The notes under the pieces: model-generated
The model's database searches: none
What the model was told of the DNA's origin: nothing
What the model saw: only the letters and a program-made list of their open reading frames with translations
Translations under genes and position numbers: made by a program
Part shown: piece by piece, positions 2,256 to 20,020 of the stretch
Position numbering within the stretch: position 1 is the first letter of the stretch
Layout of the letters: each line of letters begins with the position of its first letter
Assembly: GCF_016903815.1 (NCBI RefSeq)
Contig: NZ_CP069971.1
Reading direction: 5' to 3' (one strand)
Source: Escherichia coli
Lineage (GTDB): Bacteria > Pseudomonadota > Gammaproteobacteria > Enterobacterales > Enterobacteriaceae
DNA: 48,644 bases

Positions 2256-2767
2256 TGATGGCCCCCGTCATTTCTGGTGCTTTTCACCGTGCGGCTTCTT
2301 AAAAACCTGCCATCACGAACAACAGACACTTCTCGTTTACCCAACCTCATTTCACGGCGGTAACATTCAGAAAATGCCTCGTCCGGCATCATATAAATGC
2401 GACGCTTCGCCTCCGTATCCAGAAGGGAACGGCTTGGGGTTACATATAAAAACGACTCATCAATAGGGACAAAACCACGAGCAAGAATTGCTGGCAGAAT
2501 GCCAGGAAGAACGCAGAAAACAGCTCCACGATGCAGCAACATCTGGTACTCCATGACCTCCGTTATCCCCGTGACTACTGTTACGGTGTCACGTCTGTTA
2601 CGGCTGGCAACCAGTCGCTGCACACGTCCAATTTTCTGATCTACAGATAGATGTTTGCTATCGTTATCAATATGATCGATAGCAAATCCTTTAATCGTTT
2701 GATCAAGGTAGTGCACCACCTTCGATTGAATCTGGTGATTATCACCAAAGAAGGCCAGAATCATCAT
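2252..2767 (-). CDS. hypothetical protein
   Basis: 171 aa ORF; start overlaps the Cro-like gene stop by 4 nt. No family recognised. Confidence 0.4.
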   Translation of the reverse strand: MMILAFFGDNHQIQSKVVHYLDQTIKGFAIDHIDNDSKHLSVDQKIGRVQRLVASRNRRDTVTVVTGITEVMEYQMLLHRGAVFCVLPGILPAILARGFVPIDESFLYVTPSRSLLDTEAKRRIYMMPDEAFSECYRREMRLGKREVSVVRDGRFLRSRTVKSTRNDGGHQ

Positions 2768-3258
2768 TCCTCAAGCCTCCCAAGTGCTGAACGCCGGGCG
2801 TTGCTAATCTCCTTATGAATCAGCTCGATATCGCTGGAATCTTTATTCTTAAGCTCCAGCACGGTAATCGCATCACGAACCTCTGAAACGGTTACGTGTG
2901 AGTGTTTCCAGCGAGCAATGAATCGCGGACCGCGTAGATTGCAACGCTCCGCAGGCATCCCCAACTCAGAGAAAACCGCTTTCAGCCTTGATAAGCAGTT
3001 AACAGGGAGATTCCCTTTGATCTTGTTCTGCCGAACCGATGTGCCATCGCTACGCTGGCGCTGACGTTCGGCAAAATCTGCCGCCCATTGCTGGACGTTA
3101 ATCCGGCCTTCCGAATACGCCACCAGCAGCGTCAGGTTATCCGCACGAGGGAATCTCTCGAAGCGATACCAGGCACCAATCAGTGATGACGTAAAGCCAA
3201 ACTTTCTGGCAACACCAATTTGGCCTCCATTTTCGTCAACCCACTCCTGAAAGGTCAT
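2764..3258 (-). CDS. Cro-like HTH regulator with C-terminal extension
   Basis: 164 aa; N-terminal GGQIGVARKFGFTSSLIGAWYRFERFPRADNL resembles Cro/YdaS-type HTH; divergent from the CI-like gene across an operator cluster. Confidence 0.5.
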   Translation of the reverse strand: MTFQEWVDENGGQIGVARKFGFTSSLIGAWYRFERFPRADNLTLLVAYSEGRINVQQWAADFAERQRQRSDGTSVRQNKIKGNLPVNCLSRLKAVFSELGMPAERCNLRGPRFIARWKHSHVTVSEVRDAITVLELKNKDSSDIELIHKEISNARRSALGRLEE

Positions 3259-3274
3259 TTAACGAACTCCAGTT

Positions 3275-3400
3275 AAAACCACGATATGTGGTATTAAAAC
3301 CACATATCGTGAGTTTTTCAATGGGCAAAACAAAAAATAACCTTCTATTTGTGGTCCACCTCTCGTCTTACCATGTGAAAACCACTAAATGTGGTAATGT
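3275..3400. promoter_or_regulatory. divergent promoter/operator region with ACCAC-N5-GTGGT operator sites
   Basis: Cores at 3278-3292 (ACCACGATATGTGGT), 3299-3313 (ACCACATATCGTGAG, the mirror of the first) and 3381-3395 (ACCACTAAATGTGGT), plus a GTGGTCCAC element at 3351-3359. Confidence 0.6.
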
Positions 3401-3432
3401 ATAAATAACCCACCATTCACGATTGATGAGAC

Positions 3433-4089
3433 ATGAAAAGCAACGACGAGAACATCAAGAAAGAAATAGGTCTGCGCATTCAGACTCTACGGAAACAATC
3501 CGGCATGACTGCCGGAGATCTCCAGCAAGTCACTGGAATAGGCTTAAGCACCTTGCAGAACTATGAGGCCGGATTAAGACAACCATCTATACCTGCCATC
3601 AAGAAAATCGCGCACGCCCTGAAAGCATCAGCGCCTTATATCGCGTGCTTAACAGATAACCCGTTCCCACCCCAGAATACTAACGCTCCTGTTATTCCTG
3701 GGCTTGTAGCTATAAAAAATGACATAGCATCGCACGCCGGAGAAAAGCCAGTGCTGGCGATAGAACAGGAGATTCTACGAAGCAAGAACATCAACCCATC
3801 GTCTCTGTCAGTTCTCCAGAGCAACGATGAGTTAATGTCACCAACAATATCCCCTGGCTCCCAAGTCCTGATTGATACAGACGATACAGAGATTCATGAG
3901 GGGATCTATGCCCTTGAAGACAGAAATGGCCTGGTTGTTTTGAGGCACTGTAGAGTCATACCGGGTGACAATGCTGTTATGCTGTCAACCGAAAGGGATG
4001 CTGAAATGAACACTAAGCATCTGAATAACGAGGAATTTAAGCGTTATAAAGTTCTGGGCCGCGTAGTTAGTGTTGTCAACTGGTTATGA
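3433..4089 (+). CDS. CI-like repressor (N-terminal HTH, C-terminal LexA/S24-type autopeptidase domain)
   Basis: 218 aa; HTH GLRIQTLRKQSGMTAGDLQQVTGIGLSTLQNYEAG; C-terminal ...VVLRHCRVIPGDNAVMLSTERD...YKVLGRVVSV resembles S24 peptidase. Confidence 0.75.
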   Translation: MKSNDENIKKEIGLRIQTLRKQSGMTAGDLQQVTGIGLSTLQNYEAGLRQPSIPAIKKIAHALKASAPYIACLTDNPFPPQNTNAPVIPGLVAIKNDIASHAGEKPVLAIEQEILRSKNINPSSLSVLQSNDELMSPTISPGSQVLIDTDDTEIHEGIYALEDRNGLVVLRHCRVIPGDNAVMLSTERDAEMNTKHLNNEEFKRYKVLGRVVSVVNWL

Positions 4090-4131
4090 TACACAGCACG
4101 GCGAAAGCCGTGCATTTCTACGCTCAAAAAA

Positions 4132-4146
4132 ACCACATTTTGTGGT
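4132..4146. promoter_or_regulatory. operator site ACCACATTTTGTGGT next to a TTGACA element
   Basis: Perfect 7-5-7 palindrome AAACCAC-ATTTT-GTGGTTT directly upstream of the 4182 ORF. Confidence 0.55.
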
Positions 4147-4181
4147 TTTGACAACATGTGAAAGTATAAAAGAGGCTACGC

Positions 4182-4556
4182 ATGGAATTACATACAGCCA
4201 ATAAAAACGAAACTCTGATCACTGCTGGAATCGAAATCCAAGCGTTGAACATAGCGATTGAGTGTATGTTATGCCAAATCATTGATAATGAGAAAGATAT
4301 CGACTGGATATCATCTACCCTTCATCTTGCTTACGAGCAAAAAGCCTGCCTCAAAACAGCCTTACAATACGATGTGCCTTCTGTATCAAAGCTGTGCCAG
4401 TCATTGATGGCATATAACAGAGCTATCATTTCTGTATGCCTCATGATTCTCGATGAGAATACCCCTCTTAGCGACCGCTCAGAAGCAGCTCTAACCCTCT
4501 CACGTAAACAGCGACAGCTAGCAAATCAACTGATATCAACGATAGCTGACCTCTGA
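4182..4556 (+). CDS. hypothetical protein (operator-controlled orphan gene)
   Basis: 124 aa ORF with an upstream GAGG RBS; flanked by an operator upstream and a hairpin terminator downstream. Confidence 0.45.
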   Translation: MELHTANKNETLITAGIEIQALNIAIECMLCQIIDNEKDIDWISSTLHLAYEQKACLKTALQYDVPSVSKLCQSLMAYNRAIISVCLMILDENTPLSDRSEAALTLSRKQRQLANQLISTIADL

Positions 4557-4560
4557 CTGC

Positions 4561-4585
4561 AAGCGGGCTAACGCCCGCTTATATG
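4561..4585 (+). terminator. intrinsic terminator hairpin
   Basis: AAGCGGGC-TAAC-GCCCGCTT followed by a T-rich stretch. Confidence 0.5.
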
Positions 4586-4589
4586 ATTA

Positions 4590-4683
4590 TAGATTTATAT
4601 AATTATATAAAACGCTTTTCATCCGCCAAAAAGTTGGTTATGCTTACCTCGTTCTATAAATATAGATTTATAGAATTATATAA
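4590..4683. repeat. two AT-rich composite sites (ATAGATTTATA + TATAATTATATAA) upstream of parA; candidate centromere/operator
   Basis: 4590-4610 ...tagatttatataattatataa and 4661-4683 tatagatttatagaattatataa. Confidence 0.5.
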
Positions 4684-4706
4684 CCAAACACATGGAGTCT
4701 CGACAA

Positions 4707-5360
4707 ATGACTATCTCTGTAGGTATTTTCAACGGAAAAGGCGGCGTAACCAAATCAACAATTGCCCGTGCTTTAGCAGTTGCTTATGCAAAGGCTGGCT
4801 GGAATGTATGCCTGATCGATATGGATGTGCTTAACGGAACGGTAACGCGTTGGGTACAACGCAGAATGGCCAACAATATCGAACCAGCAATCGCGGCGCA
4901 GCCGTGCGGCACACCATCACAAGTCCAGAAAATCATCGAATCAGAAGTATACGACCTGGTTATCGTCGATGGCGGTGCCTACGCATCTGAATCAGTACCG
5001 AAGCTCTCTGAATTTCTGGATATGGTTATTTTGCCAACCAGATTCTCTACCGATGACCTGGAAACCACCGTTAACACAGCTCACGGCATCGTTAAAAAGG
5101 GTGTACCAATCAAGAAAATTTGCATGGTGTTTTCCGGCGCGGCTGAAAACGAAGCTGACTATATTGAAGCCCAAGAGTACCTGGCTAATACGCCATACTT
5201 TGTTGTCGATAAGTACATTCCCCACAAGCCAGCTCTGAGCAAAGCTCAGGATAAGGGCTTAAGCCTTATTGAGTGCTCATACGTTGCGCCACGCAAAAAG
5301 GCAGACGATGTTATCCAGGGGATTATCAATCAGCTTGAGGCTCTGACTACTGCCGCGTAA
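4707..5360 (+). CDS. parA: ParA-family partition ATPase (deviant Walker A)
   Basis: MTISVGIFNGKGGVTKSTIA...CLIDMD; GGAG RBS about 10 nt upstream of the ATG at 4707 (the ORF track starts at an upstream in-frame ATG, 4692). Confidence 0.8.
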   Translation: MTISVGIFNGKGGVTKSTIARALAVAYAKAGWNVCLIDMDVLNGTVTRWVQRRMANNIEPAIAAQPCGTPSQVQKIIESEVYDLVIVDGGAYASESVPKLSEFLDMVILPTRFSTDDLETTVNTAHGIVKKGVPIKKICMVFSGAAENEADYIEAQEYLANTPYFVVDKYIPHKPALSKAQDKGLSLIECSYVAPRKKADDVIQGIINQLEALTTAA

Positions 5361-5391
5361 TATATAATTATAGTTTTATAGATTTATATAA
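5361..5391. repeat. AT-rich palindromic site between parA and the ParG-like gene
   Basis: tatataattatag ttt tatagatttatataa, the same motif family as at 4590-4683. Confidence 0.45.
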
Positions 5392-5403
5392 AAGGGGATA
5401 CAC

Positions 5404-5652
5404 ATGGCCGCACCATCAAAACCACCGAAAAAGAACAGCAAAGGCGTACCGCCATCAATCGAACAACCGCAGGTTTTCGACCCGACTGAAACGCCGACCA
5501 GAACCAAATCAGGTGGGGCACAAATGGCGTTTAACGTCGACCCTGAATTTAAACGCGAGTACAAAACGTTCGCCAGCTCAATGGATATGTCATTGAAAGA
5601 AGTGCTGACAAAATCTTTTGAGTTACTCAAGGCTCAATACAACCAGAAGTAA
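5404..5652 (+). CDS. small partition/centromere-binding protein, ParG-like (predicted ribbon-helix-helix)
   Basis: 82 aa; flexible basic N-terminus and C-terminal MAFNVDPEFKREYKTFASSMDMSLKEVL, RHH-like; immediately downstream of parA. Confidence 0.55.
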   Translation: MAAPSKPPKKNSKGVPPSIEQPQVFDPTETPTRTKSGGAQMAFNVDPEFKREYKTFASSMDMSLKEVLTKSFELLKAQYNQK

Positions 5653-5714
5653 GAGAAGGTGACGGCCTCCAGCGCCAACTGTTGGCCGTCGCGACACAAC
5701 AAGGGGAATTTGTT

Positions 5715-5864
5715 ATGTCCGAGCAACAATATACACGGTTACTGAAAACTCGTCTAACCGACCTCAAACGGCTGCAAGCTGGTTGCTTATTTGCCCTGCT
5801 ATCTACCAGGCCAGAATGGGTACGTGAAGCAGTTCTGAAAGGTTTAATGCGCTCCAGCGTTTAA
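5715..5864 (+). CDS. hypothetical small protein (49 aa from ATG 5715)
   Basis: AAGGGG RBS 8 nt upstream of ATG 5715; the track ORF at 5682 begins with TTG. Confidence 0.3.
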   Translation: MSEQQYTRLLKTRLTDLKRLQAGCLFALLSTRPEWVREAVLKGLMRSSV

Positions 5865-5874
5865 ATTCAACCAT

Positions 5875-5900
5875 AAAAAAGGCCCCCGAAGGGGCCTAAT
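5875..5900 (-). terminator. intrinsic terminator (GGCCCC-CGAA-GGGGCC, T-run on minus strand)
   Basis: Perfect GC hairpin flanked by an A6 run on the plus strand, i.e. T6 on the minus strand; lies between convergent genes. Confidence 0.65.
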
Positions 5901-5902
5901 CG

Positions 5903-6022
5903 CTACTTGCTGCTAATGTTTATCGTCACATTCAGAGCGTTATCAGTAATCTTCCAACCCTCCCCATGTGGCGTAAACAAAGCTCCAGTAACAACGATAA
6001 AAATACACATACAGTATTTTTT
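5903..6022 (-). CDS. small hydrophobic peptide (about 40 aa), function unknown
   Basis: MKKYCMCIFIVVTGALFTPHGEGWKITDNALNVTINISSK with an AGGG RBS, ending at the terminator hairpin. Confidence 0.3.
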   Translation of the reverse strand, partial: KKYCMCIFIVVTGALFTPHGEGWKITDNALNVTINISSK

Positions 6023-6423
6023 CATTGTATGGCCCTTACAGGCCGTTTCACGGCATCCCCACCGACGAAAACAACGCGAGAGCAAGCACGGCTGCTTGTG
6101 CTTGCATGTACGGCAACGGAGAATCCTCCCCTAAAGTCGGTGCCCGGGTGCGAATCGGCGGGAAGGTCCACAGGTATTTTACGATTATTTTAAGATTAGT
6201 TATAGGAAAGAAATTAAACGAAAAAACTCGTTTATTTTCACAAAATCAGTAACCTACCCACAATCTGTGAGTTTGCAGGCACAACAAGAACCACAATTTT
6301 ATGAAGCATAATAGTGGACTATTATTACCTTTTGGGTAAAATTAACTTGCTGCTTGTGCTTGCGTGGTTGTTTATACAACAACGTAATGCTGAAAGGACC
6401 GCGAATCCGATCAGCACGAAAGA

Positions 6424-6449
6424 ACCGTCCTCAATAGGGCGGTTTTTTT
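6424..6449 (+). terminator. intrinsic terminator/attenuator in the antirepressor leader
   Basis: ACCGTCCT-CAAT-AGGGCGGT followed by T7. Confidence 0.6.
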
Positions 6450-6468
6450 GTTTCTGCCTACCAATAAA

Positions 6469-6483
6469 CCCACACTATGTGGT
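6469..6483. promoter_or_regulatory. operator-like site CCCACACTATGTGGT (ACCAC-N5-GTGGT family)
   Basis: One mismatch to the operator consensus seen between the CI-like and Cro-like genes. Confidence 0.5.
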
Positions 6484-6593
6484 TGTCTCTGTTAAAATCC
6501 CGCCGTATTGACATAAATGCGCCATTGGTGGACACTTTCCTAGCCGTAGCAAAATCTACGGTCGGGATTGGAACCCCGTAGACACAATGGCGC

Positions 6594-6616
6594 ATACCGC
6601 GTTAGCGGTTTTTTTA
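6594..6616 (+). terminator. second terminator-like hairpin in the antirepressor leader
   Basis: ACCGC-GTTA-GCGGT followed by T7. Confidence 0.45.
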
Positions 6617-6781
6617 TGCGTAAAGCACTGCTACACCCAAATTATGGTGGGGCGTGCGGGGGAGTCGTAAGACTCGCCGGTTCGTCATTGTGTCCGGTAG
6701 TTCCAACCCTGCACGTCTCACCACCCAATGATTGGAACCTGACGGTGGTGAGTATCCTTAACCTTTAAGGGAATCATCACA

Positions 6782-6973
6782 ATGACAAACCTACCCCATG
6801 ACTATTACGTCAACCTCGTAAAGATCCTTCTCAAGAAAGCCTCATACGCCGATAAATTCCGCCTGGCTGAAATAATCGAGCGCGAAGCTATGCGCATCGC
6901 CAGCAACGATAACGCTGTTTCTGTCGCAAAAATCTCCCTCGTAACCAAAGTAGTTATGGGAGGTGCAAAATGA
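6782..6973 (+). CDS. small protein translationally coupled to the antirepressor gene
   Basis: 63 aa; its stop overlaps the ATG of the next gene (ATGA overlap at 6970). Confidence 0.45.
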   Translation: MTNLPHDYYVNLVKILLKKASYADKFRLAEIIEREAMRIASNDNAVSVAKISLVTKVVMGGAK

Positions 6974-8151
6974 AAACGCTTCCGACCGTTAACACCCTAC
7001 AGCCTATCCTGCATAACCAGATCCCCGTTATCACTACTGAACTACTGGCGCAATTGTATGGAACCGAGCGCCAACGTCTGACGAACAATTTCAATAGAAA
7101 CAAGGAACGTTTTATAGAAGGTAAACACTTTTTTAGGATAGAAGGTAAAGAGTTACGAGAGTTGAAGAACAAAAACTCTTTAAGAGTTCCTGTGAGAGTA
7201 GTTAACGAACCATCTTTAAGAGGGTTACAAATTCCCCCGAAAGTTCGCTCCCTCATCCTCTGGACAGAACGCGGGGCTGCACGTCACGCCAAAATGCTTG
7301 AAACTAACCAAGCGTGGGATGTGTTCGAACGGCTGGAAGACTGCTATTTCAGCCAGAACGCGCAAACGGCCGCGACCGTAACCGTCTCGCCAAGCAATGC
7401 TCGTGAGGTTGTTGATACGCTCAACGCCAAACCAATGTATTACGTTAAGGTGTGCAATAACGAGCCACTCACAACCTCAGCCGATGTTGCCCAGGCATTC
7501 AGCACCACAAACAATTCCATCGTTATGGCCATCGATGCGTTACGCATTCCTCGCACAGCTGCGGCGCGTCATTTCTTTAAAGAGCAACGACCGTTGGAAG
7601 GAAGCGACCGCGAAATAACAATCTATCGCATGACAAAAGACGGATTTACCTTGCTCATGGAAAGTATCGACGGTCCAAGCGTGAAGGATATCAAGCTGGC
7701 CTACATTGAAGCTTTTAACGCTATCAGCAGCGTGTTAAAGGCAGAATACGAGCGAATACTATACAACCGACTGTATCAGGAAACAAAGATTATCCGAACG
7801 GCAACAGAACATCATCGGCTATTAACGGAACCAAACTACCGCAAGACACTAATCAAAGAGTTTGACAAAGCGACGGAGAAAACTAAAGCGGCACTAAATC
7901 TACCAACAATGACTAAGGATGATGTGATATCAGCCTTACTTCTTGATCTACTCAGAAACGCCAGAGCACTTATAAGCTTTGACGAAAACCTGAATCCTCA
8001 GCTCAAGCTACTACCACCGACAGGCAAAGTAGTCGACCAGGCTGATCACAACAGCATACTCAGCGTTCTGGATGCAAACCTGCCAGCCAGGACACTACAG
8101 GAACTGATAAAAATATCTGCGGATAAACTGGCCGCAGGTGCAAAACCATAA
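6970..8151 (+). CDS. antirepressor-like protein (ORF6N/KilA-type N-terminal domain)
   Basis: 393 aa; N-terminal ...NNFNRNKERFIEGKHFFRIEGKELRELK...LILWTERGAARHAKMLETNQAWDVFERLEDCYF matches the ORF6N-type antirepressor pattern as I recall it. Confidence 0.6.
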   Translation: MKTLPTVNTLQPILHNQIPVITTELLAQLYGTERQRLTNNFNRNKERFIEGKHFFRIEGKELRELKNKNSLRVPVRVVNEPSLRGLQIPPKVRSLILWTERGAARHAKMLETNQAWDVFERLEDCYFSQNAQTAATVTVSPSNAREVVDTLNAKPMYYVKVCNNEPLTTSADVAQAFSTTNNSIVMAIDALRIPRTAAARHFFKEQRPLEGSDREITIYRMTKDGFTLLMESIDGPSVKDIKLAYIEAFNAISSVLKAEYERILYNRLYQETKIIRTATEHHRLLTEPNYRKTLIKEFDKATEKTKAALNLPTMTKDDVISALLLDLLRNARALISFDENLNPQLKLLPPTGKVVDQADHNSILSVLDANLPARTLQELIKISADKLAAGAKP

Positions 8152-8155
8152 AACA

Positions 8156-8176
8156 AAGCGCCCGATTTGGGCGCTT
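8156..8176 (-). terminator. hairpin terminator between convergent genes
   Basis: AAGCGCCC-GATTT-GGGCGCTT with a T-rich flank on the minus strand. Confidence 0.5.
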
Positions 8177-8185
8177 CTTCAATTC

Positions 8186-8821
8186 TTAATATTTCGGTGT
8201 AATCAGTAGCGATACATGCCCTGATTTGTCACGAGAAACGTAATACTCGCCTCTCTTAGTCTTGAACTCAGCTTTCTGCATATCAGATTTAACAATCTGC
8301 TCTAACTGCGCAATCACGGTGTCTCTTTCACTTGACGCATCCAAGACTTCAACTGCTACGGCCATAGAAAGCAAGGAATCAGAGTTAGGCTTGGATACTC
8401 GCCATAATAACTCAGAAATCTTCCCATCCTTATCAACTCTAGCCCGACCGTTAACAGATGAGTTGATGGCAAATTCAACGGTGTTGTTACCTTGTTTAAC
8501 AGACTTAATTCTTATAGTGGAGGTGGCTTTTCCTGATGTAGCGATGCCTTCAAGGTCATCATTATATAACTTCTTAAACTTATCTACGGTCACACCATCA
8601 AAAGCAGCTCCGGTAGTAGCCGCAGTGTTGGAGTCTTCTGGGATCAAGGTCACAGCCGCAAGAGTATTAACAACTACAAAAGTTGCAATCCCGAGAAAGC
8701 CACTCACTAAAACAGCTTTGAACTTACCACCAGAAGACGAGGCACATTGTTTCCGATATGCGCCACGAACTACGAAGAAACACAAAATCAGGCTAATAAT
8801 AAACGCCACCAGCATCCCCAT
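8186..8821 (-). CDS. membrane protein with two N-terminal TM helices, function unknown
   Basis: 211 aa; MGMLVAFIISLILCFFVV and AVLVSGFLGIATFVVVNTLAAV hydrophobic segments, then a soluble domain of about 150 aa. Confidence 0.55.
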   Translation of the reverse strand: MGMLVAFIISLILCFFVVRGAYRKQCASSSGGKFKAVLVSGFLGIATFVVVNTLAAVTLIPEDSNTAATTGAAFDGVTVDKFKKLYNDDLEGIATSGKATSTIRIKSVKQGNNTVEFAINSSVNGRARVDKDGKISELLWRVSKPNSDSLLSMAVAVEVLDASSERDTVIAQLEQIVKSDMQKAEFKTKRGEYYVSRDKSGHVSLLITPKY

Positions 8822-10758: not shown

Positions 10759-11058
10759 TTAGACATGGAACGCTACTCGCTTTCCTGTAGGAAGCTCAAC
10801 ATCCAGGCTTAATTTGCCTCCCATAGCTTCAACGTAACGCTTTAATGTCGCCAGCTTTAAATCATTTCCGCGCTGCTCCAGCTTTGTTACTGCTGGCTGG
10901 CTTATACCCATCGCCTCAGCAACCTGTTTTTGTGATAACTGGAGTTCTTCACGCATCATCTGCAAGCCGACCTCAAGAATCATCTCATCTGCCATTTCTT
11001 TAATTCGCGCCTGGCTTTCAGGTGAACGGCTGGCAATCACCTCATCTAATGTTCTCAT
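10759..11058 (-). CDS. HigA-like antitoxin (XRE-family HTH)
   Basis: 99 aa; ...LQLSQKQVAEAMGISQPAVTKLEQ...; 1-nt start/stop overlap with the upstream toxin-like gene. Confidence 0.6.
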   Translation of the reverse strand: MRTLDEVIASRSPESQARIKEMADEMILEVGLQMMREELQLSQKQVAEAMGISQPAVTKLEQRGNDLKLATLKRYVEAMGGKLSLDVELPTGKRVAFHV

Positions 11059-11411
11059 TACTTGCTCTCCAGTGTGTTCAGATGTGCTGCAAACTCATCC
11101 TCAGCTATACGCACCAGTTTTTCATAAAACCGTTTATCGTTACTTTTGTCTCCTGCACAAAGAACGATGGCCCGGCGAATCGGATCGAACGCATAAAAGG
11201 CTCTTATCGGACGGCCAGAAAACTGAACGCGAAGCTCTTTCATATTTTTGTACCGAGAACCTTTTACGGTATCGGCATATGGCCTGGGTAACTCAGGTCC
11301 GTAAACCTGTAGCTTTTTCAAATCAGCCAAAACCTTTTCCTGAAGAGCGTCTTCTTGCTCATTTAGCCAGTCGTCAAATCGCTGGCTAAAAAGTACCGTC
11401 CACATGCTCAA
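11058..11411 (-). CDS. RelE/HigB-family toxin-like protein (Gp49-type)
   Basis: 117 aa; ...VKGSRYKNMKELRVQFSGRPIRAFYAFDPIRRAIVLCAGDKSNDKRFY... matches the addiction-module killer pattern. Confidence 0.6.
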   Translation of the reverse strand: MSMWTVLFSQRFDDWLNEQEDALQEKVLADLKKLQVYGPELPRPYADTVKGSRYKNMKELRVQFSGRPIRAFYAFDPIRRAIVLCAGDKSNDKRFYEKLVRIAEDEFAAHLNTLESK

Positions 11412-12867: not shown

Positions 12868-13848
12868 TTAATGTTGGAGTGATTTCCAGGTCTTTCTTAG
12901 CCTGTTATAACGCTGCTCAACGAGGGAGCGTAAATATGCAAGGTCAGCACCAGGATACATGCCATCAGCAAATTCCTGGCTAACCTCTCTAGTGATTTGA
13001 TGACGAAGTTCGGCCTCTCCCTTTTCCTGAACAAGACGCGCAGCTCTCTCCGCTGCTTTCTGTTTTGCCTTTATCTCTCTGGCCGTCTTCCTCTGACGCC
13101 ATACATTCTCCATCTGCTCCTGAATAACAATACGCTTATAATCAGCCTCCGTTATCGCTTTTTTAAGCCGTTCGCTATTCTTCGCATTGAAGTAATTAAG
13201 TTTCTGGCTAACCGCACGTCTCCATGCTTGTTCAGTAATACCAACTGTTTCCAGCAGTTGATCACGAATCTCGATTTTCGCTGGCCAATACTGTTTATTC
13301 ACCCGATCCCAGCGACGTTCATAATCAATAAAACCTAACTCTTTCAGTTGCGACAACGCCCTTGTACAGCGCGTTATAGACTTGTTCCCAGCTTCGGATA
13401 CGGTAGACAGGCCGCAAAAATCAGCCAACGCCTCAGCACTGGCCAGAACCCGCTTAGAAATGATGTTTACATGGTGCAAAATCGCAGCAATCACAGCATT
13501 AATCGCCCGACGACGATGCTCGTTTATCCGGCGTTTCCGCTCTGACGGTTGATTAACGTAGAACGCAACCTCACACGTAAGATCACGACCATTAATGCGC
13601 TGTAAAGCATCAGATAACACCAGCGGCAGCTTGTGCGTATGGTGCTTTGGAGGCTGGAACTCCGGCGACAAATTACAAACGTAAGCTGAACGTAGAGACG
13701 GCATTGGTCTATCCATATGTTCGCTCTTGCGTCCACGGAAAACCAACGTATAATGGGAGTTGTCGAGGCGCCCATGGATTGTTGTTGTTGGTTTTCCGTG
13801 GATGTCGCAAGAAGCCCGCAGATTTATCTGCGGGCTTTTTGTTTCCAT
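12868..13848 (-). CDS. repA: replication initiator RepA (IncFII RepA-like); may include a leader ORF, with an alternative internal start near 13716
   Basis: ...CGLSTVSEAGNKSITRCTRALSQLKELGFIDYERR... resembles the conserved core of IncFII RepA1 (recalled, not searched). Confidence 0.65.
   Translation of the reverse strand: METKSPQINLRASCDIHGKPTTTIHGRLDNSHYTLVFRGRKSEHMDRPMPSLRSAYVCNLSPEFQPPKHHTHKLPLVLSDALQRINGRDLTCEVAFYVNQPSERKRRINEHRRRAINAVIAAILHHVNIISKRVLASAEALADFCGLSTVSEAGNKSITRCTRALSQLKELGFIDYERRWDRVNKQYWPAKIEIRDQLLETVGITEQAWRRAVSQKLNYFNAKNSERLKKAITEADYKRIVIQEQMENVWRQRKTAREIKAKQKAAERAARLVQEKGEAELRHQITREVSQEFADGMYPGADLAYLRSLVEQRYNRLRKTWKSLQH
13762..13840 (+). ncRNA. CopA-like antisense RNA opposite the repA 5' region (putative)
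   Basis: Plus-strand promoter TTGCGT (13727-13732), 16-nt spacer, TATAAT (13749-13754); terminator AGCCCGCAGAT..ATCTGCGGGCT + T-run at 13813-13840, antisense to the first repA codons and RBS. Confidence 0.5.
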
Positions 13849-14055
13849 ATCTGGTCATTTTCCAACCAGACACCCACAATCATAACCACGTTACGTGGTT
13901 TTAAGAGAACTCTACCACAACACTTTCGGTCATGCACGAAGTCTCTCACTGATCGAACGATAATCCACCAGTAAAAGGATCTAAATTGGATCTCGTTTTG
14001 CGAGCATCATACTACTGGCCTAACTCCAGTCAATGATGAACATAACAACACTCCT

Positions 14056-14583
14056 TTATTCTGGTTTGTCTGGCCATTCGGGGTTTGCTGTGTCCACGCG
14101 ACTGACAAGAACACTGTAACGTTCCCAGGCTTCCAGTCGGATACGCTCCTCATCTGTTGCCATGCTCAGCCTGACAGCGCGTTCCAGCGGCCGGATAACT
14201 GATTCAGCTTCGGAAAGTAACGTGGCCTTTTGTGATTCGGCCTGTTGTTGCTGTTCGCCTGCCGTATAAATCCGCTTAATCACGGCACCATCCTTAAACA
14301 TCCATTTACCTGAGTCATCAGCACGTCGGTTGGAGGTAATATCAGGAACCTCAACAACGCTAAAACCTTCAGGATTAAGCGTTGAAGCATCTCTGGTGAT
14401 AGCGACAATAATATTATTTTCATCGTAAACAATCTTTATTGTGTCTGGCTGAAAGTTCTTCACTTCCTCATACCAGTTTTTCCCGTCTTCAGTGTAAAGC
14501 CAGATGACTCCGTGCTTCTTTGTTAACTCATACTGTTCCAGTGTTTTAGCGTTACCCGCTTTTATGTTCTTTAAGTGCATCAT
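14056..14583 (-). CDS. tail fibre assembly protein (Tfa-like)
   Basis: C-terminal ...[27 protein letters not shown], the Tfa signature. Confidence 0.75.
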
Positions 14584-14584
14584 A

Positions 14585-15625
14585 TTAAACGCTCGCTACA
14601 TTATACCAGGTGCCATTTATATACTTTTGAACGGGTCTGTAATAAACGCCCGCTATATTATCGGCAGAGTTGGACCCTGTATCCTGAACATTAATACCAG
14701 ACAATACATGACCTGACGGGCACTGGAAATTCCATGTTTGCCAGTTATTCACTCCATAATATTGCTGTGAACCAAGTCGAACATCTTTCACATATCTGGA
14801 ATCAAAATTGCCATAGTTGCCGGGAATAACTTGCGAGCCGCAAAGCCAATTCCCGTTATTATCCATGTACGCCTGACCATCGGTGCCATTTTCTGTCCTT
14901 GAATTATTAATCATGTAGATGCCAAATTGCTTATTCCCCAGACCACCAATCATAAATTTGCGATCAGCATGGTCCTGACGTAACAATGCCTGAGCACCAT
15001 CGGTGGATACCACATTACGTCCGAAAATAACATTCTGGTCACGCATATTTATCCACATGCCGGTACTGCTATTAATTGCCAAACGATTTGCATATACCCA
15101 AGCATTGGTTCCTATATCACCAGTAACATTGAGTCCATTACCGATAGAAACAGCGCCATTGGCGTTATTAATGGCAAACGGCCTTAAACTACTCCATGTT
15201 CCCAGGCTGTCTCCCGAATTGGTCAACATGAAGTATGTGTTTGAACCATCGTTTCGGATAAAGAATCCATAGTTGCCATAGGCAATACGCAGACCATTCG
15301 CCGATTTGGAAATAATCTCGCCATCAGCCGTTAAACCGCCGGTAAGAGTTCCTCCCGTTATTGGCAATGCACCAATATTTTTCGGCGTCAGGTTAATATC
15401 TGATGTTCCATCAAACGAAACGTTATTAATTTTACGGGCTGTTTTCAGCTTTGTAGCCGTTGAGGCATTGCCGGACAGCTCACCAGAAATGCCACCAACA
15501 ACTGTTAGATCACCAGTTATTGTGCCGCCTGAAATTTCCAGTTTTTTAGCAACATTACTCTTAATAGAGTCGATTTCATTTTTCAGATTAGTTATATCTG
15601 CTGGTATTGTTGTCACTGTTGCCAT
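14585..15625 (-). CDS. tail fibre protein (second, shorter variant)
   Basis: Contains [28 protein letters not shown], a motif shared with the 792-aa fibre; followed by the Tfa gene. Confidence 0.7.
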
Positions 15626-15634
15626 ATTAATTCC

Positions 15635-15913
15635 TTACGCCCATTCCCGCAGCGGTTGTTCTAATTGAACTTCAAAACCATCAAACATTTGTTGTTTCAA
15701 ACTGTCGTTTAAAATACGAACATTAACAAAGAAGCCATCATTTTTAATCACTGTTGGTTCTTCGTTCTCGCCGTTTGGTATTTCGGTATATGTAATACCT
15801 ACAACATCAAGAAGGATGTTGTTTTGCAGTTCTTCATTATCGTGCCAGGATATACTCTCTAAAAAAGAGTCGTATTCTGCTCTGTCTCTGAATTTCAACG
15901 TAATATCTTTCAT
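15635..15913 (-). CDS. hypothetical protein, possibly a fibre chaperone
   Basis: 92 aa; start overlaps the fibre gene stop (TAATG). Confidence 0.35.
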   Translation of the reverse strand: MKDITLKFRDRAEYDSFLESISWHDNEELQNNILLDVVGITYTEIPNGENEEPTVIKNDGFFVNVRILNDSLKQQMFDGFEVQLEQPLREWA

Positions 15914-18291
15914 TAAATAACCTCAGCCATTTGTTGGTCTGTTAATGCTTTATGCCATATTCTGAAATTCCTGATATGACCAAATAAATGACGTAAGCCT
16001 GCTGTAGTCTGGCCTCCAATACGGATGGTTGCAGAGTTCTGAATATAGGACCACGTAGTCTTTGTTTCGCTGGATATGCGCCCGTTACTTACTGAGCACG
16101 TAGACTGATCTGATTTTACACGCATCCCCATAACCATTTTTTCAAGCGATGCGTTTTCGTTTACCCGTCTGTTAGCTCCTCCAATATTGCAATAAGGAAA
16201 TCCGTCGTAATCTGTTGAACGACCGAAGCCAAGAATAATAGCCGCTCCGGTTTGATGACCGCCTGTATCAAAAACACGCGGCGCTGCATTTGGCGTTTTA
16301 TACCAGTTCTTATGTACCTCACAAAGAACCGTAAAAGGAAGATTATAAAGATTATTATTAATTGGAACTGTAACTATATCGCTTGCGCGGGTAGCCGCCG
16401 TCGTTCCTGAGATAATAAAAGATGATGCACACGAACCATCCTCAACCTGAGGGGTGGCCAGATAAATATAGTCTCCAGATACGGTTGCTCCGCCCTGCTT
16501 AGGAGAATACTGTATCTGAGATCCTATTTTTAACTCATCATCAATTGCCAGGATTGTTGCCTCTGCAAAAATCCATCCGGTAGCTTCGTCCTTTCTGACT
16601 CTCGCTGTAATCCTTGAGGCCGCGCCACCTGTCATATTAATTTCAAGCGTTTGTGTATCAATATATGCATCACCAAGAAAAGTTGTTGCACTACCGTCAT
16701 ATTTATCAAAGCGGATACGCAACCTTACCTGTCGTTCTGTTTTAAAACGACATGAGGTTGTCACGTACTTGTTATCGCCTGAAACATCAACTGACTTTGT
16801 AGCAGCAATTGATGCCATATTAATGGCTGACGTTTGCCCAATCAGAGAATCGTTACAGACAAACTTTCCATAGGTAAAACCAAAACTATCAGTCCCGGTT
16901 TCGGGAACATCCATATTTGACGATCGCCCCCAACTGGCAGGGTTTTCCGAATTGAGCATGTAGTTTGTTCGTTGTCCCTCAATAAGCAGGCCATCACGTT
17001 CAAATCGTGGCTCGTCAATGGCAGCCTCTGTAAGCACACCAGATTTATTAATATAGGTTGCTTTCGATGCGCGTTTAAACTTAACAACCTTGTCGCCAGG
17101 CATTGTTATTTCGTCGTCGCCAATAACAATCTTTTTATATGATGGCGAAAAGCCCGTAATCATATCCAGCGAATCGTTAAACGGTATCCACACATCAGGT
17201 AGCGGTTGAATAATCTTCCGGGCATCCTCCAGTGACAATGCTTCGATATCCGAGGCTGTTAAAGTAATATCTGACGAACCGTCAAATGAAACGTTGTTAA
17301 TCTTCCGTGCGGTTTTTAATTTCGTTGCGGTGTCGGCGTTCCCCGTCAGTGCGCCGTTGAGTCCGCCGTTGAAAGTCTGGCGTTCACTCCATGTGTTAGC
17401 CGTGCTCAACAGGGGGATCTTTTCACCGCTTGTGCCGAGTTCTCTTAAACCAAGGTACTGGATAACAGCAAGGACACTTGTTTTAGCCAGAATATTACGG
17501 CCGACTGACGTTAAATCAGCCAGGGCTACTGTGTCTTTACCGGTAAAGTACGGCAATTTATTTGCAGCCGTCGCAAGTCCTGCCAGAGCGGTGAGCGTAT
17601 CATCTGCTGGTTGTTTTTGCTTTGCTAGGTCAAACACTTCTTTGACGGCTTTTGGCGTTGCTGCGCGCGTTTCAGAGGTACTGTTAGTGTCACTACTGAG
17701 TTGAACAATGCCTTTTGAGGTTAAAGTTGCATCAGGATGATTACGTGATTGCTCATGTTTTACAATGGCTTGCTTAAGTCGCTTTGCTGAAACAGCTAGG
17801 GAATCATCTGTACCTGCATCAATTTCTTGTTCATTAGCAAATCTTGCTACTCCAACAACAGTTTCGGTTGCGGGAGGGTTAATAAACTCAACATCACCAA
17901 ATGTAATGTTTTTAGTATCAAGATTTTTAATTGCTATATCACTTGATATTAAAGCAATTGTAGAAGATGCTTTATTTATTATTACTTGTTCTTGCGAGTA
18001 TACAGCAAACAATGTTCCTTTATTTGTATACAAACCTATTGTATGGACAACATACTCATCTTTACTATCATCCTTCGCAGTTACATGAATGGTATCAGGA
18101 GAAACGACTTTGCCTCCTATTGTGGTAAGTCGCTTTATTTCATCTGTTATTTTTGTTTGTGTGGTTGATGTGACATAATATCTACTACCTAAACCAACAG
18201 AAACGATCTCAACTTTATTTGTTCCAGTCTTGTTGGCATTAACCAGCTCCTGACGCCCGGCGTCAGTCATCGTAAATAATAATTTACTCAC
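15913..18291 (-). CDS. tail fibre protein (long)
   Basis: 792 aa; [28 protein letters not shown] motif; directly downstream of the baseplate genes. Confidence 0.75.
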   Translation of the reverse strand: MSKLLFTMTDAGRQELVNANKTGTNKVEIVSVGLGSRYYVTSTTQTKITDEIKRLTTIGGKVVSPDTIHVTAKDDSKDEYVVHTIGLYTNKGTLFAVYSQEQVIINKASSTIALISSDIAIKNLDTKNITFGDVEFINPPATETVVGVARFANEQEIDAGTDDSLAVSAKRLKQAIVKHEQSRNHPDATLTSKGIVQLSSDTNSTSETRAATPKAVKEVFDLAKQKQPADDTLTALAGLATAANKLPYFTGKDTVALADLTSVGRNILAKTSVLAVIQYLGLRELGTSGEKIPLLSTANTWSERQTFNGGLNGALTGNADTATKLKTARKINNVSFDGSSDITLTASDIEALSLEDARKIIQPLPDVWIPFNDSLDMITGFSPSYKKIVIGDDEITMPGDKVVKFKRASKATYINKSGVLTEAAIDEPRFERDGLLIEGQRTNYMLNSENPASWGRSSNMDVPETGTDSFGFTYGKFVCNDSLIGQTSAINMASIAATKSVDVSGDNKYVTTSCRFKTERQVRLRIRFDKYDGSATTFLGDAYIDTQTLEINMTGGAASRITARVRKDEATGWIFAEATILAIDDELKIGSQIQYSPKQGGATVSGDYIYLATPQVEDGSCASSFIISGTTAATRASDIVTVPINNNLYNLPFTVLCEVHKNWYKTPNAAPRVFDTGGHQTGAAIILGFGRSTDYDGFPYCNIGGANRRVNENASLEKMVMGMRVKSDQSTCSVSNGRISSETKTTWSYIQNSATIRIGGQTTAGLRHLFGHIRNFRIWHKALTDQQMAEVI

Positions 18292-18321
18292 GCTTAATTC
18301 CTTGGATTAACAAATCGCAAA

Positions 18322-18903
18322 TTAGCACTCACCAATTAATCGTACATAAGACACAGGCTGGAAAGCACCGACAATACCAACACCACCTGAAACATTGGTT
18401 GCTTGCGAAAATGTAAATAGTGTTCTTGCCGACTTTGCACTCTTGATACTTCTTAACGTATCCTCCAACATCTCTTTCGAAGGAACAGCACCATCAAAAG
18501 AGTTAATCGAAGCAACAATTGAGGCTGTATATGGTTCGCCAGGTGGTGATGTTTCAAACCATTCTGTTATGTTTACCTCTCCACCCAAGCTATTTACTAC
18601 ATCTTCAACCGCTGCCCTTGTACCCTTTATTCGCTTTGTTCGTATTATTGATTTAAAAACAGAACGCTTTAACGATACAGGCCAACTATCCCTCCATGTA
18701 TCAGCATTCCATTGCCAAGCTAAATGATCGAGAACAACTGAGTCCAGGTTATCAACAACGCTATATATTTCTGTCTTATATATTAAATTGTTAATTGCTT
18801 GTAGTTCATCATCAATAGCTTTCGACATAGCTATCACGTTGGGATCTCTAGCTAAGTTAGGAGGTAAAACATCCAACAAGCTAACATTAAAGATATCAGC
18901 CAT
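18322..18903 (-). CDS. baseplate protein, P2 gpI-like
   Basis: ...LAWQWNADTWRDSWPVSLKRSVF...NITEWFETSPPGEPYTASIV... parallels P2 gpI. Confidence 0.7.
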   Translation of the reverse strand: MADIFNVSLLDVLPPNLARDPNVIAMSKAIDDELQAINNLIYKTEIYSVVDNLDSVVLDHLAWQWNADTWRDSWPVSLKRSVFKSIIRTKRIKGTRAAVEDVVNSLGGEVNITEWFETSPPGEPYTASIVASINSFDGAVPSKEMLEDTLRSIKSAKSARTLFTFSQATNVSGGVGIVGAFQPVSYVRLIGEC

Positions 18904-20020
18904 CCTCTACCCCCGCATACTGGCAATTTATATTTCTCTCTCTGGCGACCTGCGTCTCTCCAACTACAGTAAATACAGGACTTGATATTTCTAATCTTTT
19001 AGCCCCAGCATTTTTTAAACGTTGAATAATTTCATCTGGATTTATATCTCTTCCCATAACCGAACGTTGCCATTGTTTATACTCATCAAGAGCTTTCTCA
19101 ACCTCACTTTGAATTAACGTTGTTCTGTTTTTGTCCGATGAGTTAATCCAGTATTTAATTATTATATCGTATTCAATGCTATCTGGTTTCTTAACAAGAA
19201 CTTTATCTGTGAATGGTCGAATATTAGTTGCAGAGAGAACGCTATTTATCTGCTCTAATAGTTCATCAGAAGGTATATCTCCGTTCTCTAACAAAGAACG
19301 GATTTCTACAGTTCCGGGCGATGGTGTATATACATTCACATCTTTTATATTCTGATTGGCTGTTCTTGTCCAATATTTATAAGAATCCTCCGGCCCTGCT
19401 GTAGACAGTTTTTCCGGCGACAGTTTTATTCTTTCAGCATAATTATCATCTGACTCTGTATCAGCACCAGAATTAGATGTTGTTAGATTCCTTACGCTGG
19501 AAACATACGGCAACGGAGTCACCAACTCGTTTATTTGCCCAGGTAAAAAGCCATTCCCCGATAAGCCAGGTATAACAGCATATCCTGAGACTGTACCAAC
19601 TGTTTTCCCAGCTGGTATTTCCAACAAAACATCTGTTTGGAAAATAACACTATTTCCAGTTGAAATTTGAGTGCCAGCAGGTATTGTATATATCCCCGAT
19701 AATTTTGTTGACAGATTAAACTCAAATGTAGTCAAGGCAGATTGAGCTTCCAGCCTGGGCGTATCCGTCAGATAGCCTATATGGTCGAGATATTCACCCC
19801 CACCATATGTAAGAAGGTTTTGTTTTGCAGAAAAATCGATAGCTTTTCTTTGCTGTATAATAATCTCACACAATGACAAGATGAATAATCTACGTGGATC
19901 AGCAGGTGCTAATGTTTCACCTGTTATACTCTCAAAAGCCCTGATTGAACGAGTTGTTATATCAGTCGGGTTAGAATCTGCGAAAGTAATATCTGGCAAA
20001 CCACCGCGCGGCAACGTCAT
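18896..20020 (-). CDS. baseplate assembly protein J-like
   Basis: 374 aa; position and size match between the gp25/W-like and gpI-like genes. Confidence 0.7.
   Translation of the reverse strand: MTLPRGGLPDITFADSNPTDITTRSIRAFESITGETLAPADPRRLFILSLCEIIIQQRKAIDFSAKQNLLTYGGGEYLDHIGYLTDTPRLEAQSALTTFEFNLSTKLSGIYTIPAGTQISTGNSVIFQTDVLLEIPAGKTVGTVSGYAVIPGLSGNGFLPGQINELVTPLPYVSSVRNLTTSNSGADTESDDNYAERIKLSPEKLSTAGPEDSYKYWTRTANQNIKDVNVYTPSPGTVEIRSLLENGDIPSDELLEQINSVLSATNIRPFTDKVLVKKPDSIEYDIIIKYWINSSDKNRTTLIQSEVEKALDEYKQWQRSVMGRDINPDEIIQRLKNAGAKRLEISSPVFTVVGETQVARERNINCQYAGVEDG

Follow-up and report, generated by a model that had tools for sequence, protein, structure and literature searches.

Four tandem genes proposed to encode one two-segment tail fibre in an Escherichia coli phage-plasmid

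Four intact genes at the fibre locus

We analysed a 48,644-nucleotide stretch of Escherichia coli DNA (contig NZ_CP069971.1 of RefSeq assembly GCF_016903815.1), hereafter called the window, and examined the tail-fibre locus at its positions 14,056–18,291. The window covers most of a circular E. coli phage-plasmid of ~48 kb, in which a P2/Mu-like contractile-tail module adjoins a RepA replicon. On the minus strand, genes for baseplate protein J and a P2 gpI-type protein precede four tightly packed, intact genes that encode proteins of 792, 92, 346 and 175 amino acids (aa) (Table 1). The original prediction, made from the letters of the DNA, described two fibre genes in tandem, each followed by a small coupled gene, and we found exactly this order of four open reading frames. 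Shine–Dalgarno-like sequences precede three of the four starts, with none obvious before the 175-aa gene, and no convincing terminator was found inside the four-gene block.

We checked whether either fibre gene is a frameshifted or unexpressed remnant. Five complete plasmids of the 48-kb family carry all four genes intact and at equal length: over the fibre region, three of them, including pMB9880_3, are 100% identical to the window, and the remaining two are 96.4% identical. Comparison with one of the 96.4%-identical plasmids (L008) showed that the lengths and frames of all four genes are kept, with ratios of non-synonymous to synonymous substitution rates (dN/dS) of 0.08 for the 792-aa gene, 0.24 for the 346-aa gene and 0.07 for the 175-aa gene. 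For the parts shared with a P1-like plasmid (L002, described below), dN/dS was 0.14 for the 792-aa gene, 0.38 for the 92-aa gene and 0.23 for the 346-aa gene. These ratios indicate that all four genes are under purifying selection, and none of them is therefore a remnant.

Table 1. Features of the fibre locus and of its mosaic segments, with positions in the window
Feature	Position	Strand	Basis or remark
Proximal fibre gene, 792 aa	15913-18291	-	GTG start, AAGGA ribosome-binding site
Baseplate-proximal part, 792-aa residues 1-226		-	homologous to invertible-type relatives of the 48-kb family
Phage tail fibre repeat, Pfam PF03406, 792-aa residues 189-228	17608-17727	-	independent E-value (i-E) = 4.7e-18
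P1-like shaft segment, 792-aa residues 233-354		-	blastn and protein alignment
Relic cix/gix-type crossover site TTCTCTTAAACCAAGGTACTGGATAA, within codons for YLGLREL	17440-17465	.	single copy in window
Shared motif copy 1, 792-aa residues 309-354	17230-17367	-	BLASTP and DNA repeat
Imported hub and lectin module, 792-aa residues 363-792		-	blastn and protein alignment
Conserved hub, 792-aa residues 363-449, QPLPDVWIPFNDSLDM...GLLIEGQRTN	16945-17205	-	column conservation and pLDDT
Lectin-like beta-sandwich 1, 792-aa residues ~450-619	16435-16944	-	similarity to RcGTA head-spike fibre
Lectin-like beta-sandwich 2, 792-aa residues ~640-792, LamG/ConA-like	15916-16374	-	ends in conserved RHLFGHIRNFRIWHKALTD tail
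Accessory gene, 92 aa	15635-15913	-	start overlaps 792-aa stop as TAATG; GAGG Shine–Dalgarno-like
Distal fibre gene, 346 aa	14585-15625	-	ATG, 9 nt after 92-aa stop; AAGGA ribosome-binding site
Putative docking peptide, 346-aa residues 1-24	15554-15625	-	invariant positions in second fibres
Shared motif copy 2, 346-aa residues 44-89	15359-15496	-	BLASTP and DNA repeat; overlaps Gp34_trimer match
Mu S-type receptor-binding tip, 346-aa residues 97-345	14591-15337	-	PDB 5YVQ_A
Tail fibre assembly (Tfa) gene, 175 aa	14056-14583	-	1 nt after 346-aa stop
Deletion junction	14038-14054	.	relatives carry invertase and inverted U' and Sv' there; ~2.1 kb missing
Mosaic segment, 792-aa residues 1-226	17612-19000		best match invertible-type relatives, 94%
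Mosaic segment, 792-aa residue 233 to 346-aa residue 275	14799-17592		P1-like plasmid pAVS0578-B (L002), 94.5%
Mosaic segment, lambda-like match	15891-17208		lambda-like siphovirus Tritos, 93%
Mosaic segment, relatives' native tip and Tfa	14055-15324		invertible-type relatives, 85%

The 792-aa protein is modular. Its homology to the fibres of two relatives (L003 and L005) stops just past the PF03406 repeat, at window 17612–17621, and PHROG 1419 covers residues 350–792 (E = 6e-235). We also observed that, compared with the 792-aa fibre of L003, ~210 residues of repeated shaft are missing at window 17592–17612 (residues ~226–233), among them additional copies of PF03406 and collar-like repeats, which leaves the proximal segment far shorter than the shaft of the relatives. 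An AlphaFold2 model of the last ~430 residues shows two beta-sandwich domains. The first sandwich matches NCBIfam NF048003 (53.5 bits, cutoff 36) and PDB 6TB9 (E = 2.7e-5) and is modelled with a predicted local distance difference test score (pLDDT) of ~90. The second has a weak Pfam Laminin_G_3 match, and its Foldseek matches include entries for the baseplate/tail-fibre complexes of phages Pa193 and E217, pentraxins, CBM40 and botulinum toxin Hc. These likenesses suggest that the lectin-like domains are probably a glycan-binding module. In an alignment of 24 members the hub has a column conservation of 0.85 with 24 invariant columns, against ~0.5 for the lectin domains, and its pLDDT is ~30 in the monomer model. 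No part of the module is better conserved, and the monomer prediction for the hub is poor, which together make it a candidate joint surface.

Coupling to the preceding gene, as originally predicted, held for both small genes, and the assignment as a Tfa-type protein held for the last one: the 175-aa protein belongs to PHROG 136 (E = 4.8e-78) and matches Mu protein U over its full length (PDB 5YVQ_B, E = 2.9e-99). A Tfa-type chaperone was rejected for the 92-aa protein, which falls not in the Tfa families but in PHROG 1361, a family of no known function (E = 5e-36); no homology to tail fibre assembly protein families was found. Its AlphaFold2 model has an alpha/beta fold (pLDDT 91), and a structural search gave no informative match. 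Homologues occur in 187 phage records, each beside a fibre gene. We infer that the 92-aa protein primarily serves the lectin fibre, either as an assembly chaperone or as a structural part of a joint; by analogy we would slightly favour a chaperone role, because the 92-aa gene sits where tfa sits after stf. The family profile also matched giant PKD-repeat proteins (P0049, P0052, P0059–P0061, P0071 and P0078), in 3–9 stretches each with E down to 3e-11. We treated this kinship as spurious, as the predicted fold is alpha/beta and not a PKD sandwich; the matches are probably an artefact of composition or motif (Y.VNVR..D in one, Y.V.VRV.DD in the other).

The 346-aa protein contains no baseplate-attachment domain, and a peptide of ~15–24 residues is its only conserved N-terminal feature. 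Its tip aligned with residues 265–503 of the Mu tail fibre protein S chain (PDB 5YVQ_A, E = 4e-106) and is near-identical to the C terminus of the single fibre of L003. Between the peptide and the end of the protein, residues 57–152 match Pfam Gp34_trimer, and residues 65–175 match the C-terminal region of T4 gp34 (PDB 4UXE, E = 4e-20).

Linkage of the cassette across phage lineages

We surveyed 80 IMG/VR loci together with annotated phage loci, and found that the hub, a homologue of the 92-aa gene and a second fibre are linked across T5-like, Nonagvirus, Drexlerviridae, lambda-like and P1-like phages. The hub motif was present in 73 of 75 upstream open reading frames, and a second fibre began 9–12 nt past the small gene in 74 of the 81 loci with enough downstream sequence. 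The window carries all three marks of the cassette: the hub with two sandwiches and the C-terminal tail (...HLFGH.RN.R.W) that this cassette type requires, the TAATG-coupled 92-aa gene, and a peptide-bearing second fibre at 9 nt. Phages with homologues of the 92-aa protein are T5-like, Queuovirinae, Drexlerviridae, Dhillonvirus, lambda-like and rV5-like, and homologues were also found in 40 plasmids, of which 5 belong to the 48-kb family, 7 are P1-like and 28 are others. Among 5,426 complete E. coli genomes, lectin-module DNA was present in 678, and the central junction region at a coverage of at least 80% in 18.

The second fibres begin with M[AVT]T.T.IP.DI..LK. Residues M1, T3, T5, I7, P8, D10, I11, L14 and K15 are invariant in 28 distinct N termini that carry unrelated bodies, and conservation fades past residue ~24, beyond which the distal parts are otherwise unrelated. 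These proteins are 151–586 aa long, and their bodies fall into at least six unrelated types. An S74-type intramolecular chaperone forms the end of most of these proteins, and the S-type distal body occurs only in the P1-like and 48-kb plasmid versions. The peptide is always found behind the same proximal-fibre module and the 92-aa gene. A tblastn search with the 44-residue N terminus matched Drexlerviridae only, as the query was too short for a count of the peptide that does not depend on the small gene. Because the peptide is invariant in siphoviruses, T5-like phages and P1-like phages despite their unrelated baseplates, we infer that the 346-aa protein is a distal half that plugs into the 792-aa protein. 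The T-shaped body is common to phage phiEco32 gp15 and IrisVonRoten gp24 (67% over 255 residues), but gp15 has another N terminus and another proximal partner, so the N-terminal peptide tracks the partner and not the body.

A few loci depart from the common form. In L066 the upstream fibre ends early, within the second lectin domain. In L011 (tunzivis) and other Drexlerviridae the second fibre is just 224–234 aa, consisting of the docking peptide, a coiled coil and an S74-type chaperone domain, and some depositors label this protein 'putative lateral tail fiber chaperone'. Self-cleavage would leave very little of it, so it may serve another role than a true distal fibre does.

The closest known layouts are those of IrisVonRoten (Bas32) gp22–gp23–gp24, Nonagvirus, Drexlerviridae and Tritos (gp19–21), which have the same three-gene order, spacing and second-fibre peptide as the window. 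Identity to the hub and lectin module of the window is 64% for IrisVonRoten and 93% for Tritos, and the homologues of the 92-aa protein are 48–64% identical. These phages have non-contractile tails, whereas the phage-plasmid in the window is contractile-tailed and its proximal fibre has a P2/Mu-baseplate-type N terminus. Distal fibres of the IrisVonRoten type end in an S74-type intramolecular chaperone and need no Tfa; that of the window has a Mu S tip and a separate U/Tfa protein. An AlphaFold-Multimer model of the IrisVonRoten fibre attaches the distal Gp24 to the proximal Gp22, and the C-terminal galectin-like domain of Gp22 is regarded as a possible additional receptor-binding domain (PMC11990801). 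In T5-like phages and small siphoviruses, lateral fibres composed of more than one protein are a recognised type (PMC8594841).

Mosaic origin and loss of an inversion switch

Most plasmids of the 48-kb family, and the Yersinia phage vB_YpM_39, have a single fibre of ~785–792 aa and a Tfa gene, followed by an inverted Tfa' with an alternative tip and by a DNA invertase. This is a switch of the Mu G-segment type (Sv–U/U'–Sv'), with a gix-like site inside the fibre gene. The fibre locus of the window is a mosaic of this arrangement and others (Table 1). Its lectin module, from QPLPDVW on, is 93% identical to the stf-like fibre of Tritos, whose Ala-rich shaft is unrelated. In the P1-like plasmid pAVS0578-B the same genes lie within the Cin-invertible C segment. 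There (positions 2683–8665) the lectin module, the 92-aa gene, a 345-aa distal fibre and Tfa face a conventional 639-aa S' and U', an arrangement in which that phage would alternate a composite fibre with a simple one.

Much of the switch is absent from the window. The single cix-type site was the only match at three or fewer mismatches, and shuffled sequences gave none; it lies at the same coding position as the gix-like site of L003, and the homologous codons are spanned by the C-segment inverted repeat of pAVS0578-B. A second, inverted crossover site was not found in the window at three or fewer mismatches, and no invertase was found anywhere in the window by tblastn with a relative's invertase (best E = 0.35). 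The alternative tip and chaperone genes in opposite orientation, which L003, L005, L006 and L007 carry, are also absent, as repA directly follows Tfa. Window 13801–14037 matches L005 2302–2538 and the sequence from window 14055 onward matches L005 from 4684 onward, which places the deletion junction between them. We considered whether the segment is still invertible and rejected this, as there is no invertase and only one full site. Compared with the Mu G segment (S–U/S'–U', Gin) and the P1 C segment (Cin), the tip and chaperone of the window are likewise Mu S and U, and the 792-aa gene keeps its cix-type site at the usual constant/variable boundary. The full switch is present in most family plasmids and in the P1-like donor, whereas the window is fixed, having neither invertase, second site nor alternative genes.

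We also observed a half-site-like inverted copy of a cix arm (TACGTGGTTTTAAGAGAACTC) at window 13892–13912, between repA and Tfa. In relatives that have kept the invertase its conservation is 100%. Because relatives with a normal switch have it too, this half-site does not explain the deletion.

The history that we consider most likely is that a piece of a P1-like C segment, itself bearing a siphovirus-type cassette, recombined into the fibre gene of the 48-kb phage-plasmid. The native Mu-like tip and its chaperone would have been retained, and the invertase, the alternative tip and the alternative chaperone lost. By these steps an either/or, phase-variable host-range switch would have become a fixed fibre showing two binding modules at once.

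The two fibres have one segment in common. Alignment of the 792-aa and 346-aa proteins yielded a single BLASTP segment, residues 309–354 against 44–89 (33/46 identical, E = 4e-16), and nothing else, which agrees with the predicted shared motif and different distal parts. At the DNA level the two copies form a direct repeat with 73% identity over 85 nt, 1871 nt apart. At least four copies occur within the P1-like alternative fibre S' alone, and the motif is a common fibre-shaft unit. An assignment to Pfam Phage_fiber_2 was rejected: that family maps to 792-aa residues 189–228, and the motif lies under Gp34_trimer in the 346-aa protein.

The motif had also been proposed as a junction for swapping fibre modules, and this was upheld in part. 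The two copies bracket the imported siphovirus-type segment, from 792-aa residue ~355 to 346-aa residue ~44. In pAVS0578-B the inverted repeat of the C segment runs from cix into the motif, which lies at the inner edge of the repeat. Because the repeat reaches the motif in P1-like relatives, there is some support for the motif as a mark of the constant/variable junction, where the variable part would start. However, the measurable breakpoints against relatives fall at 792-aa residues ~226–233 and ~361 and at 346-aa residue ~275, none of them inside the motif, and at 73% DNA identity the copies are a poor recombination substrate today. By analogy with phage DT530, in which an in-frame deletion between repeats fused both fibre genes (PMC4728585), an in-frame fusion here would regenerate a single S-type fibre.

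A composite fibre and its alternatives

We favour, with moderate confidence, a reading in which the products of the four genes are the two segments of a single composite tail fibre and its helpers; this fibre would have two receptor-binding modules, and there would not be two independent fibres. A trimer of the 792-aa protein would be anchored in the P2/Mu-type baseplate through the N-terminal ~226 residues that it has in common with its relatives. It would end in the conserved hub, with the two variable lectin-like domains projecting from the joint. A trimer of the 346-aa protein would plug into the hub by its invariant N-terminal peptide and present the Mu S-type tip at the far end. The 175-aa chaperone would fold this tip, as in the solved Mu S–U complex, and the 92-aa protein would belong to the lectin-type proximal fibre, as assembly chaperone or joint part. 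Such an arrangement agrees with the published AlphaFold-Multimer prediction for the homologous genes of T5-like phages (PMC11990801). Judged from its genes, the locus appears functional but largely ordinary.

Several observations weigh against this reading. Five loci (L023, L025, L036, L049 and L085) have a lectin fibre and a small gene but no second fibre; the small protein is therefore not solely a holder of the second fibre, and the proximal fibre can work alone. In an rV5-like phage the small gene is divergent and a docking-type fibre is likewise absent. In the IMG/VR T5-like contig L022 the second fibre appears to have decayed. Many loci are near-identical prophages, which makes the linkage data redundant, and co-inheritance alone would give linkage. 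The lectin domains have no known ligand. For any phage, the peptide–hub contact is a matter of deduction and of a published prediction. Finally, the only relative isolated as a phage, Yersinia phage vB_YpM_39, has the invertible arrangement.

As a separate observation on L022, its second fibre has no docking N terminus and starts 118 nt downstream with MCVLLGPPPLAGDP.

The original prediction had taken the locus to be a dual receptor-binding set for broader host range. Two different candidate modules, the lectin-like domains and the Mu S tip, are indeed present, but the 346-aa protein, having no baseplate domain, is unlikely to be a second independent fibre. That both fibres attach to the baseplate in parallel, each with its own small chaperone, would account for the presence of two genes that differ in their distal parts and that each have a coupled small gene behind them, and the position of the 92-aa gene in lambda-like prophages, in tfa's place after stf, makes a chaperone role plausible. 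However, the 346-aa protein has nothing in common with the 226 residues at the baseplate-proximal end, on which all relatives rely, and its peptide is invariant across unrelated baseplates and tracks the proximal-fibre module. In addition, only one homologue of phage tail protein I lies directly upstream of the fibre genes. We consider two independent fibres unlikely.

It is similarly improbable, in our view, that the lectin module is a structural joint only, which binds no receptor and merely lengthens or articulates a fibre with a single specificity from the Mu S tip. The strong conservation of the hub and of the module's C-terminal tail is consistent with such a role, as are lectin domains to which no ligand has been assigned. 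By contrast, variation within the module is greatest in the two sandwiches (column conservation 0.5, compared with 0.85 for the hub), these domains resemble carbohydrate-binding folds and the RcGTA head-spike fibre, and in the five loci listed above the lectin fibre is the sole lateral fibre. It is very unlikely that the 346-aa gene and Tfa are unused leftovers of an ancestral tip cut off by insertion of the lectin cassette. Such leftovers would fit the identity of the tip and Tfa with the Sv and U genes native to the relatives, the loci in which the lectin fibre suffices by itself, and the decayed second fibre of L022. Against this, the 346-aa gene has its own ATG and AAGGA ribosome-binding site, its dN/dS of 0.24 and that of 0.07 for Tfa hold across 4–6% DNA divergence, two 48-kb lineages and P1-like plasmids carry it intact, and it has acquired a conserved docking-type N terminus that a random cut would not supply.

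The composite fibre that we favour can be set beside other known fibres. In the T5-like phages DT57C and DT571/2, the second fibre (LtfB) has no tail-attachment domain and is held on LtfA through its N-terminal ~45 residues, and genetic evidence shows that each protein of these branched fibres has its own receptor specificity (PMC4728585). The gp14/gp15 fibre of phiEco32 is branched like that of DT57C; unlike the window, its gp15 begins MARELMPK... and its gp14 has no lectin module. No significant similarity was found between phiEco32 gp15 and the 346-aa protein or between gp14 and the 792-aa protein, and the N terminus of gp15 is unlike both MATVTTIP and the N terminus of IrisVonRoten gp24. 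No 92-aa gene has been described between the fibre genes of DT57C or phiEco32, whereas the window has one. We rejected the DT57C/phiEco32 docking type as the same system, as the N-terminal docking sequences differ. The last two genes of the window resemble the lambda Stf–Tfa and P2 H–G pairs, in which a fibre gene is followed by a coupled assembly gene, but this pair has no virion-attachment domain and sits behind another fibre gene. The T4 long tail fibre (gp34–gp35–gp36–gp37, with chaperone gp38) also joins proximal and distal products end to end and has a tip chaperone; its hinge proteins gp35 and gp36 have no homologue in the window, and the likeness is one of architecture only.

Since the early 1990s, unrelated phages have been known to exchange parts of their fibres as modules. 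The cassette, two-part and branched fibres, the Mu/P1 switch and the Mu S–U pair are likewise already known, and nothing here overturns current understanding. We found no description of a contractile-tailed phage-plasmid in which a lectin-type proximal fibre and a Tfa-dependent Mu S distal tip stand in place of an invertible switch, nor of linkage between hub, 92-aa protein and N-terminal peptide across phage lineages. In the literature on P1 C-segment variants, engineered lambda stf chimeras and the Yersinia 'vB_YpM' phages we found nothing on the cassette. The 48-kb family offers two host-range strategies for comparison within one lineage of phage-plasmids: most members have the phase-variable switch, and the window has a fixed fibre that is bivalent.

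Should the docking model hold, any distal fibre with the ~20-residue peptide could attach to a proximal fibre that bears the hub, and phages or delivery particles derived from them could be retargeted with peptide and hub as a portable connector. A bolder proposal, which we regard as speculative, is that the hub, the 92-aa protein and the peptide form a universal plug-and-socket joint by which phages of all three tail morphotypes could add any type of distal fibre, with a Tfa-dependent tip or with an intramolecular chaperone, to a proximal fibre that bears lectin domains, and that in this lineage it replaced a DNA-inversion switch, turning alternating into simultaneous dual specificity. Were this so, the 92-aa protein would represent a new class of fibre-joint or assembly factor.

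We also noted features outside the fibre genes. On the plus strand, a GC-rich hairpin (CAAGAAGCCCGCAGAT / ATCTGCGGGCTTTTTG) with a T-run at window 13808–13850 overlaps the first codons of repA (12868–13848, minus strand) and looks like the terminator of an antisense RNA. On the minus strand, a good sigma-70-like promoter (TTGACT-16-TATGAT) lies at window 14006–14033, just upstream of repA. The hairpin and the promoter may be replication-control elements. In the plasmid-maintenance part, window 10759–11411 contains a RelE/ParE-type toxin gene and a helix-turn-helix antitoxin gene.

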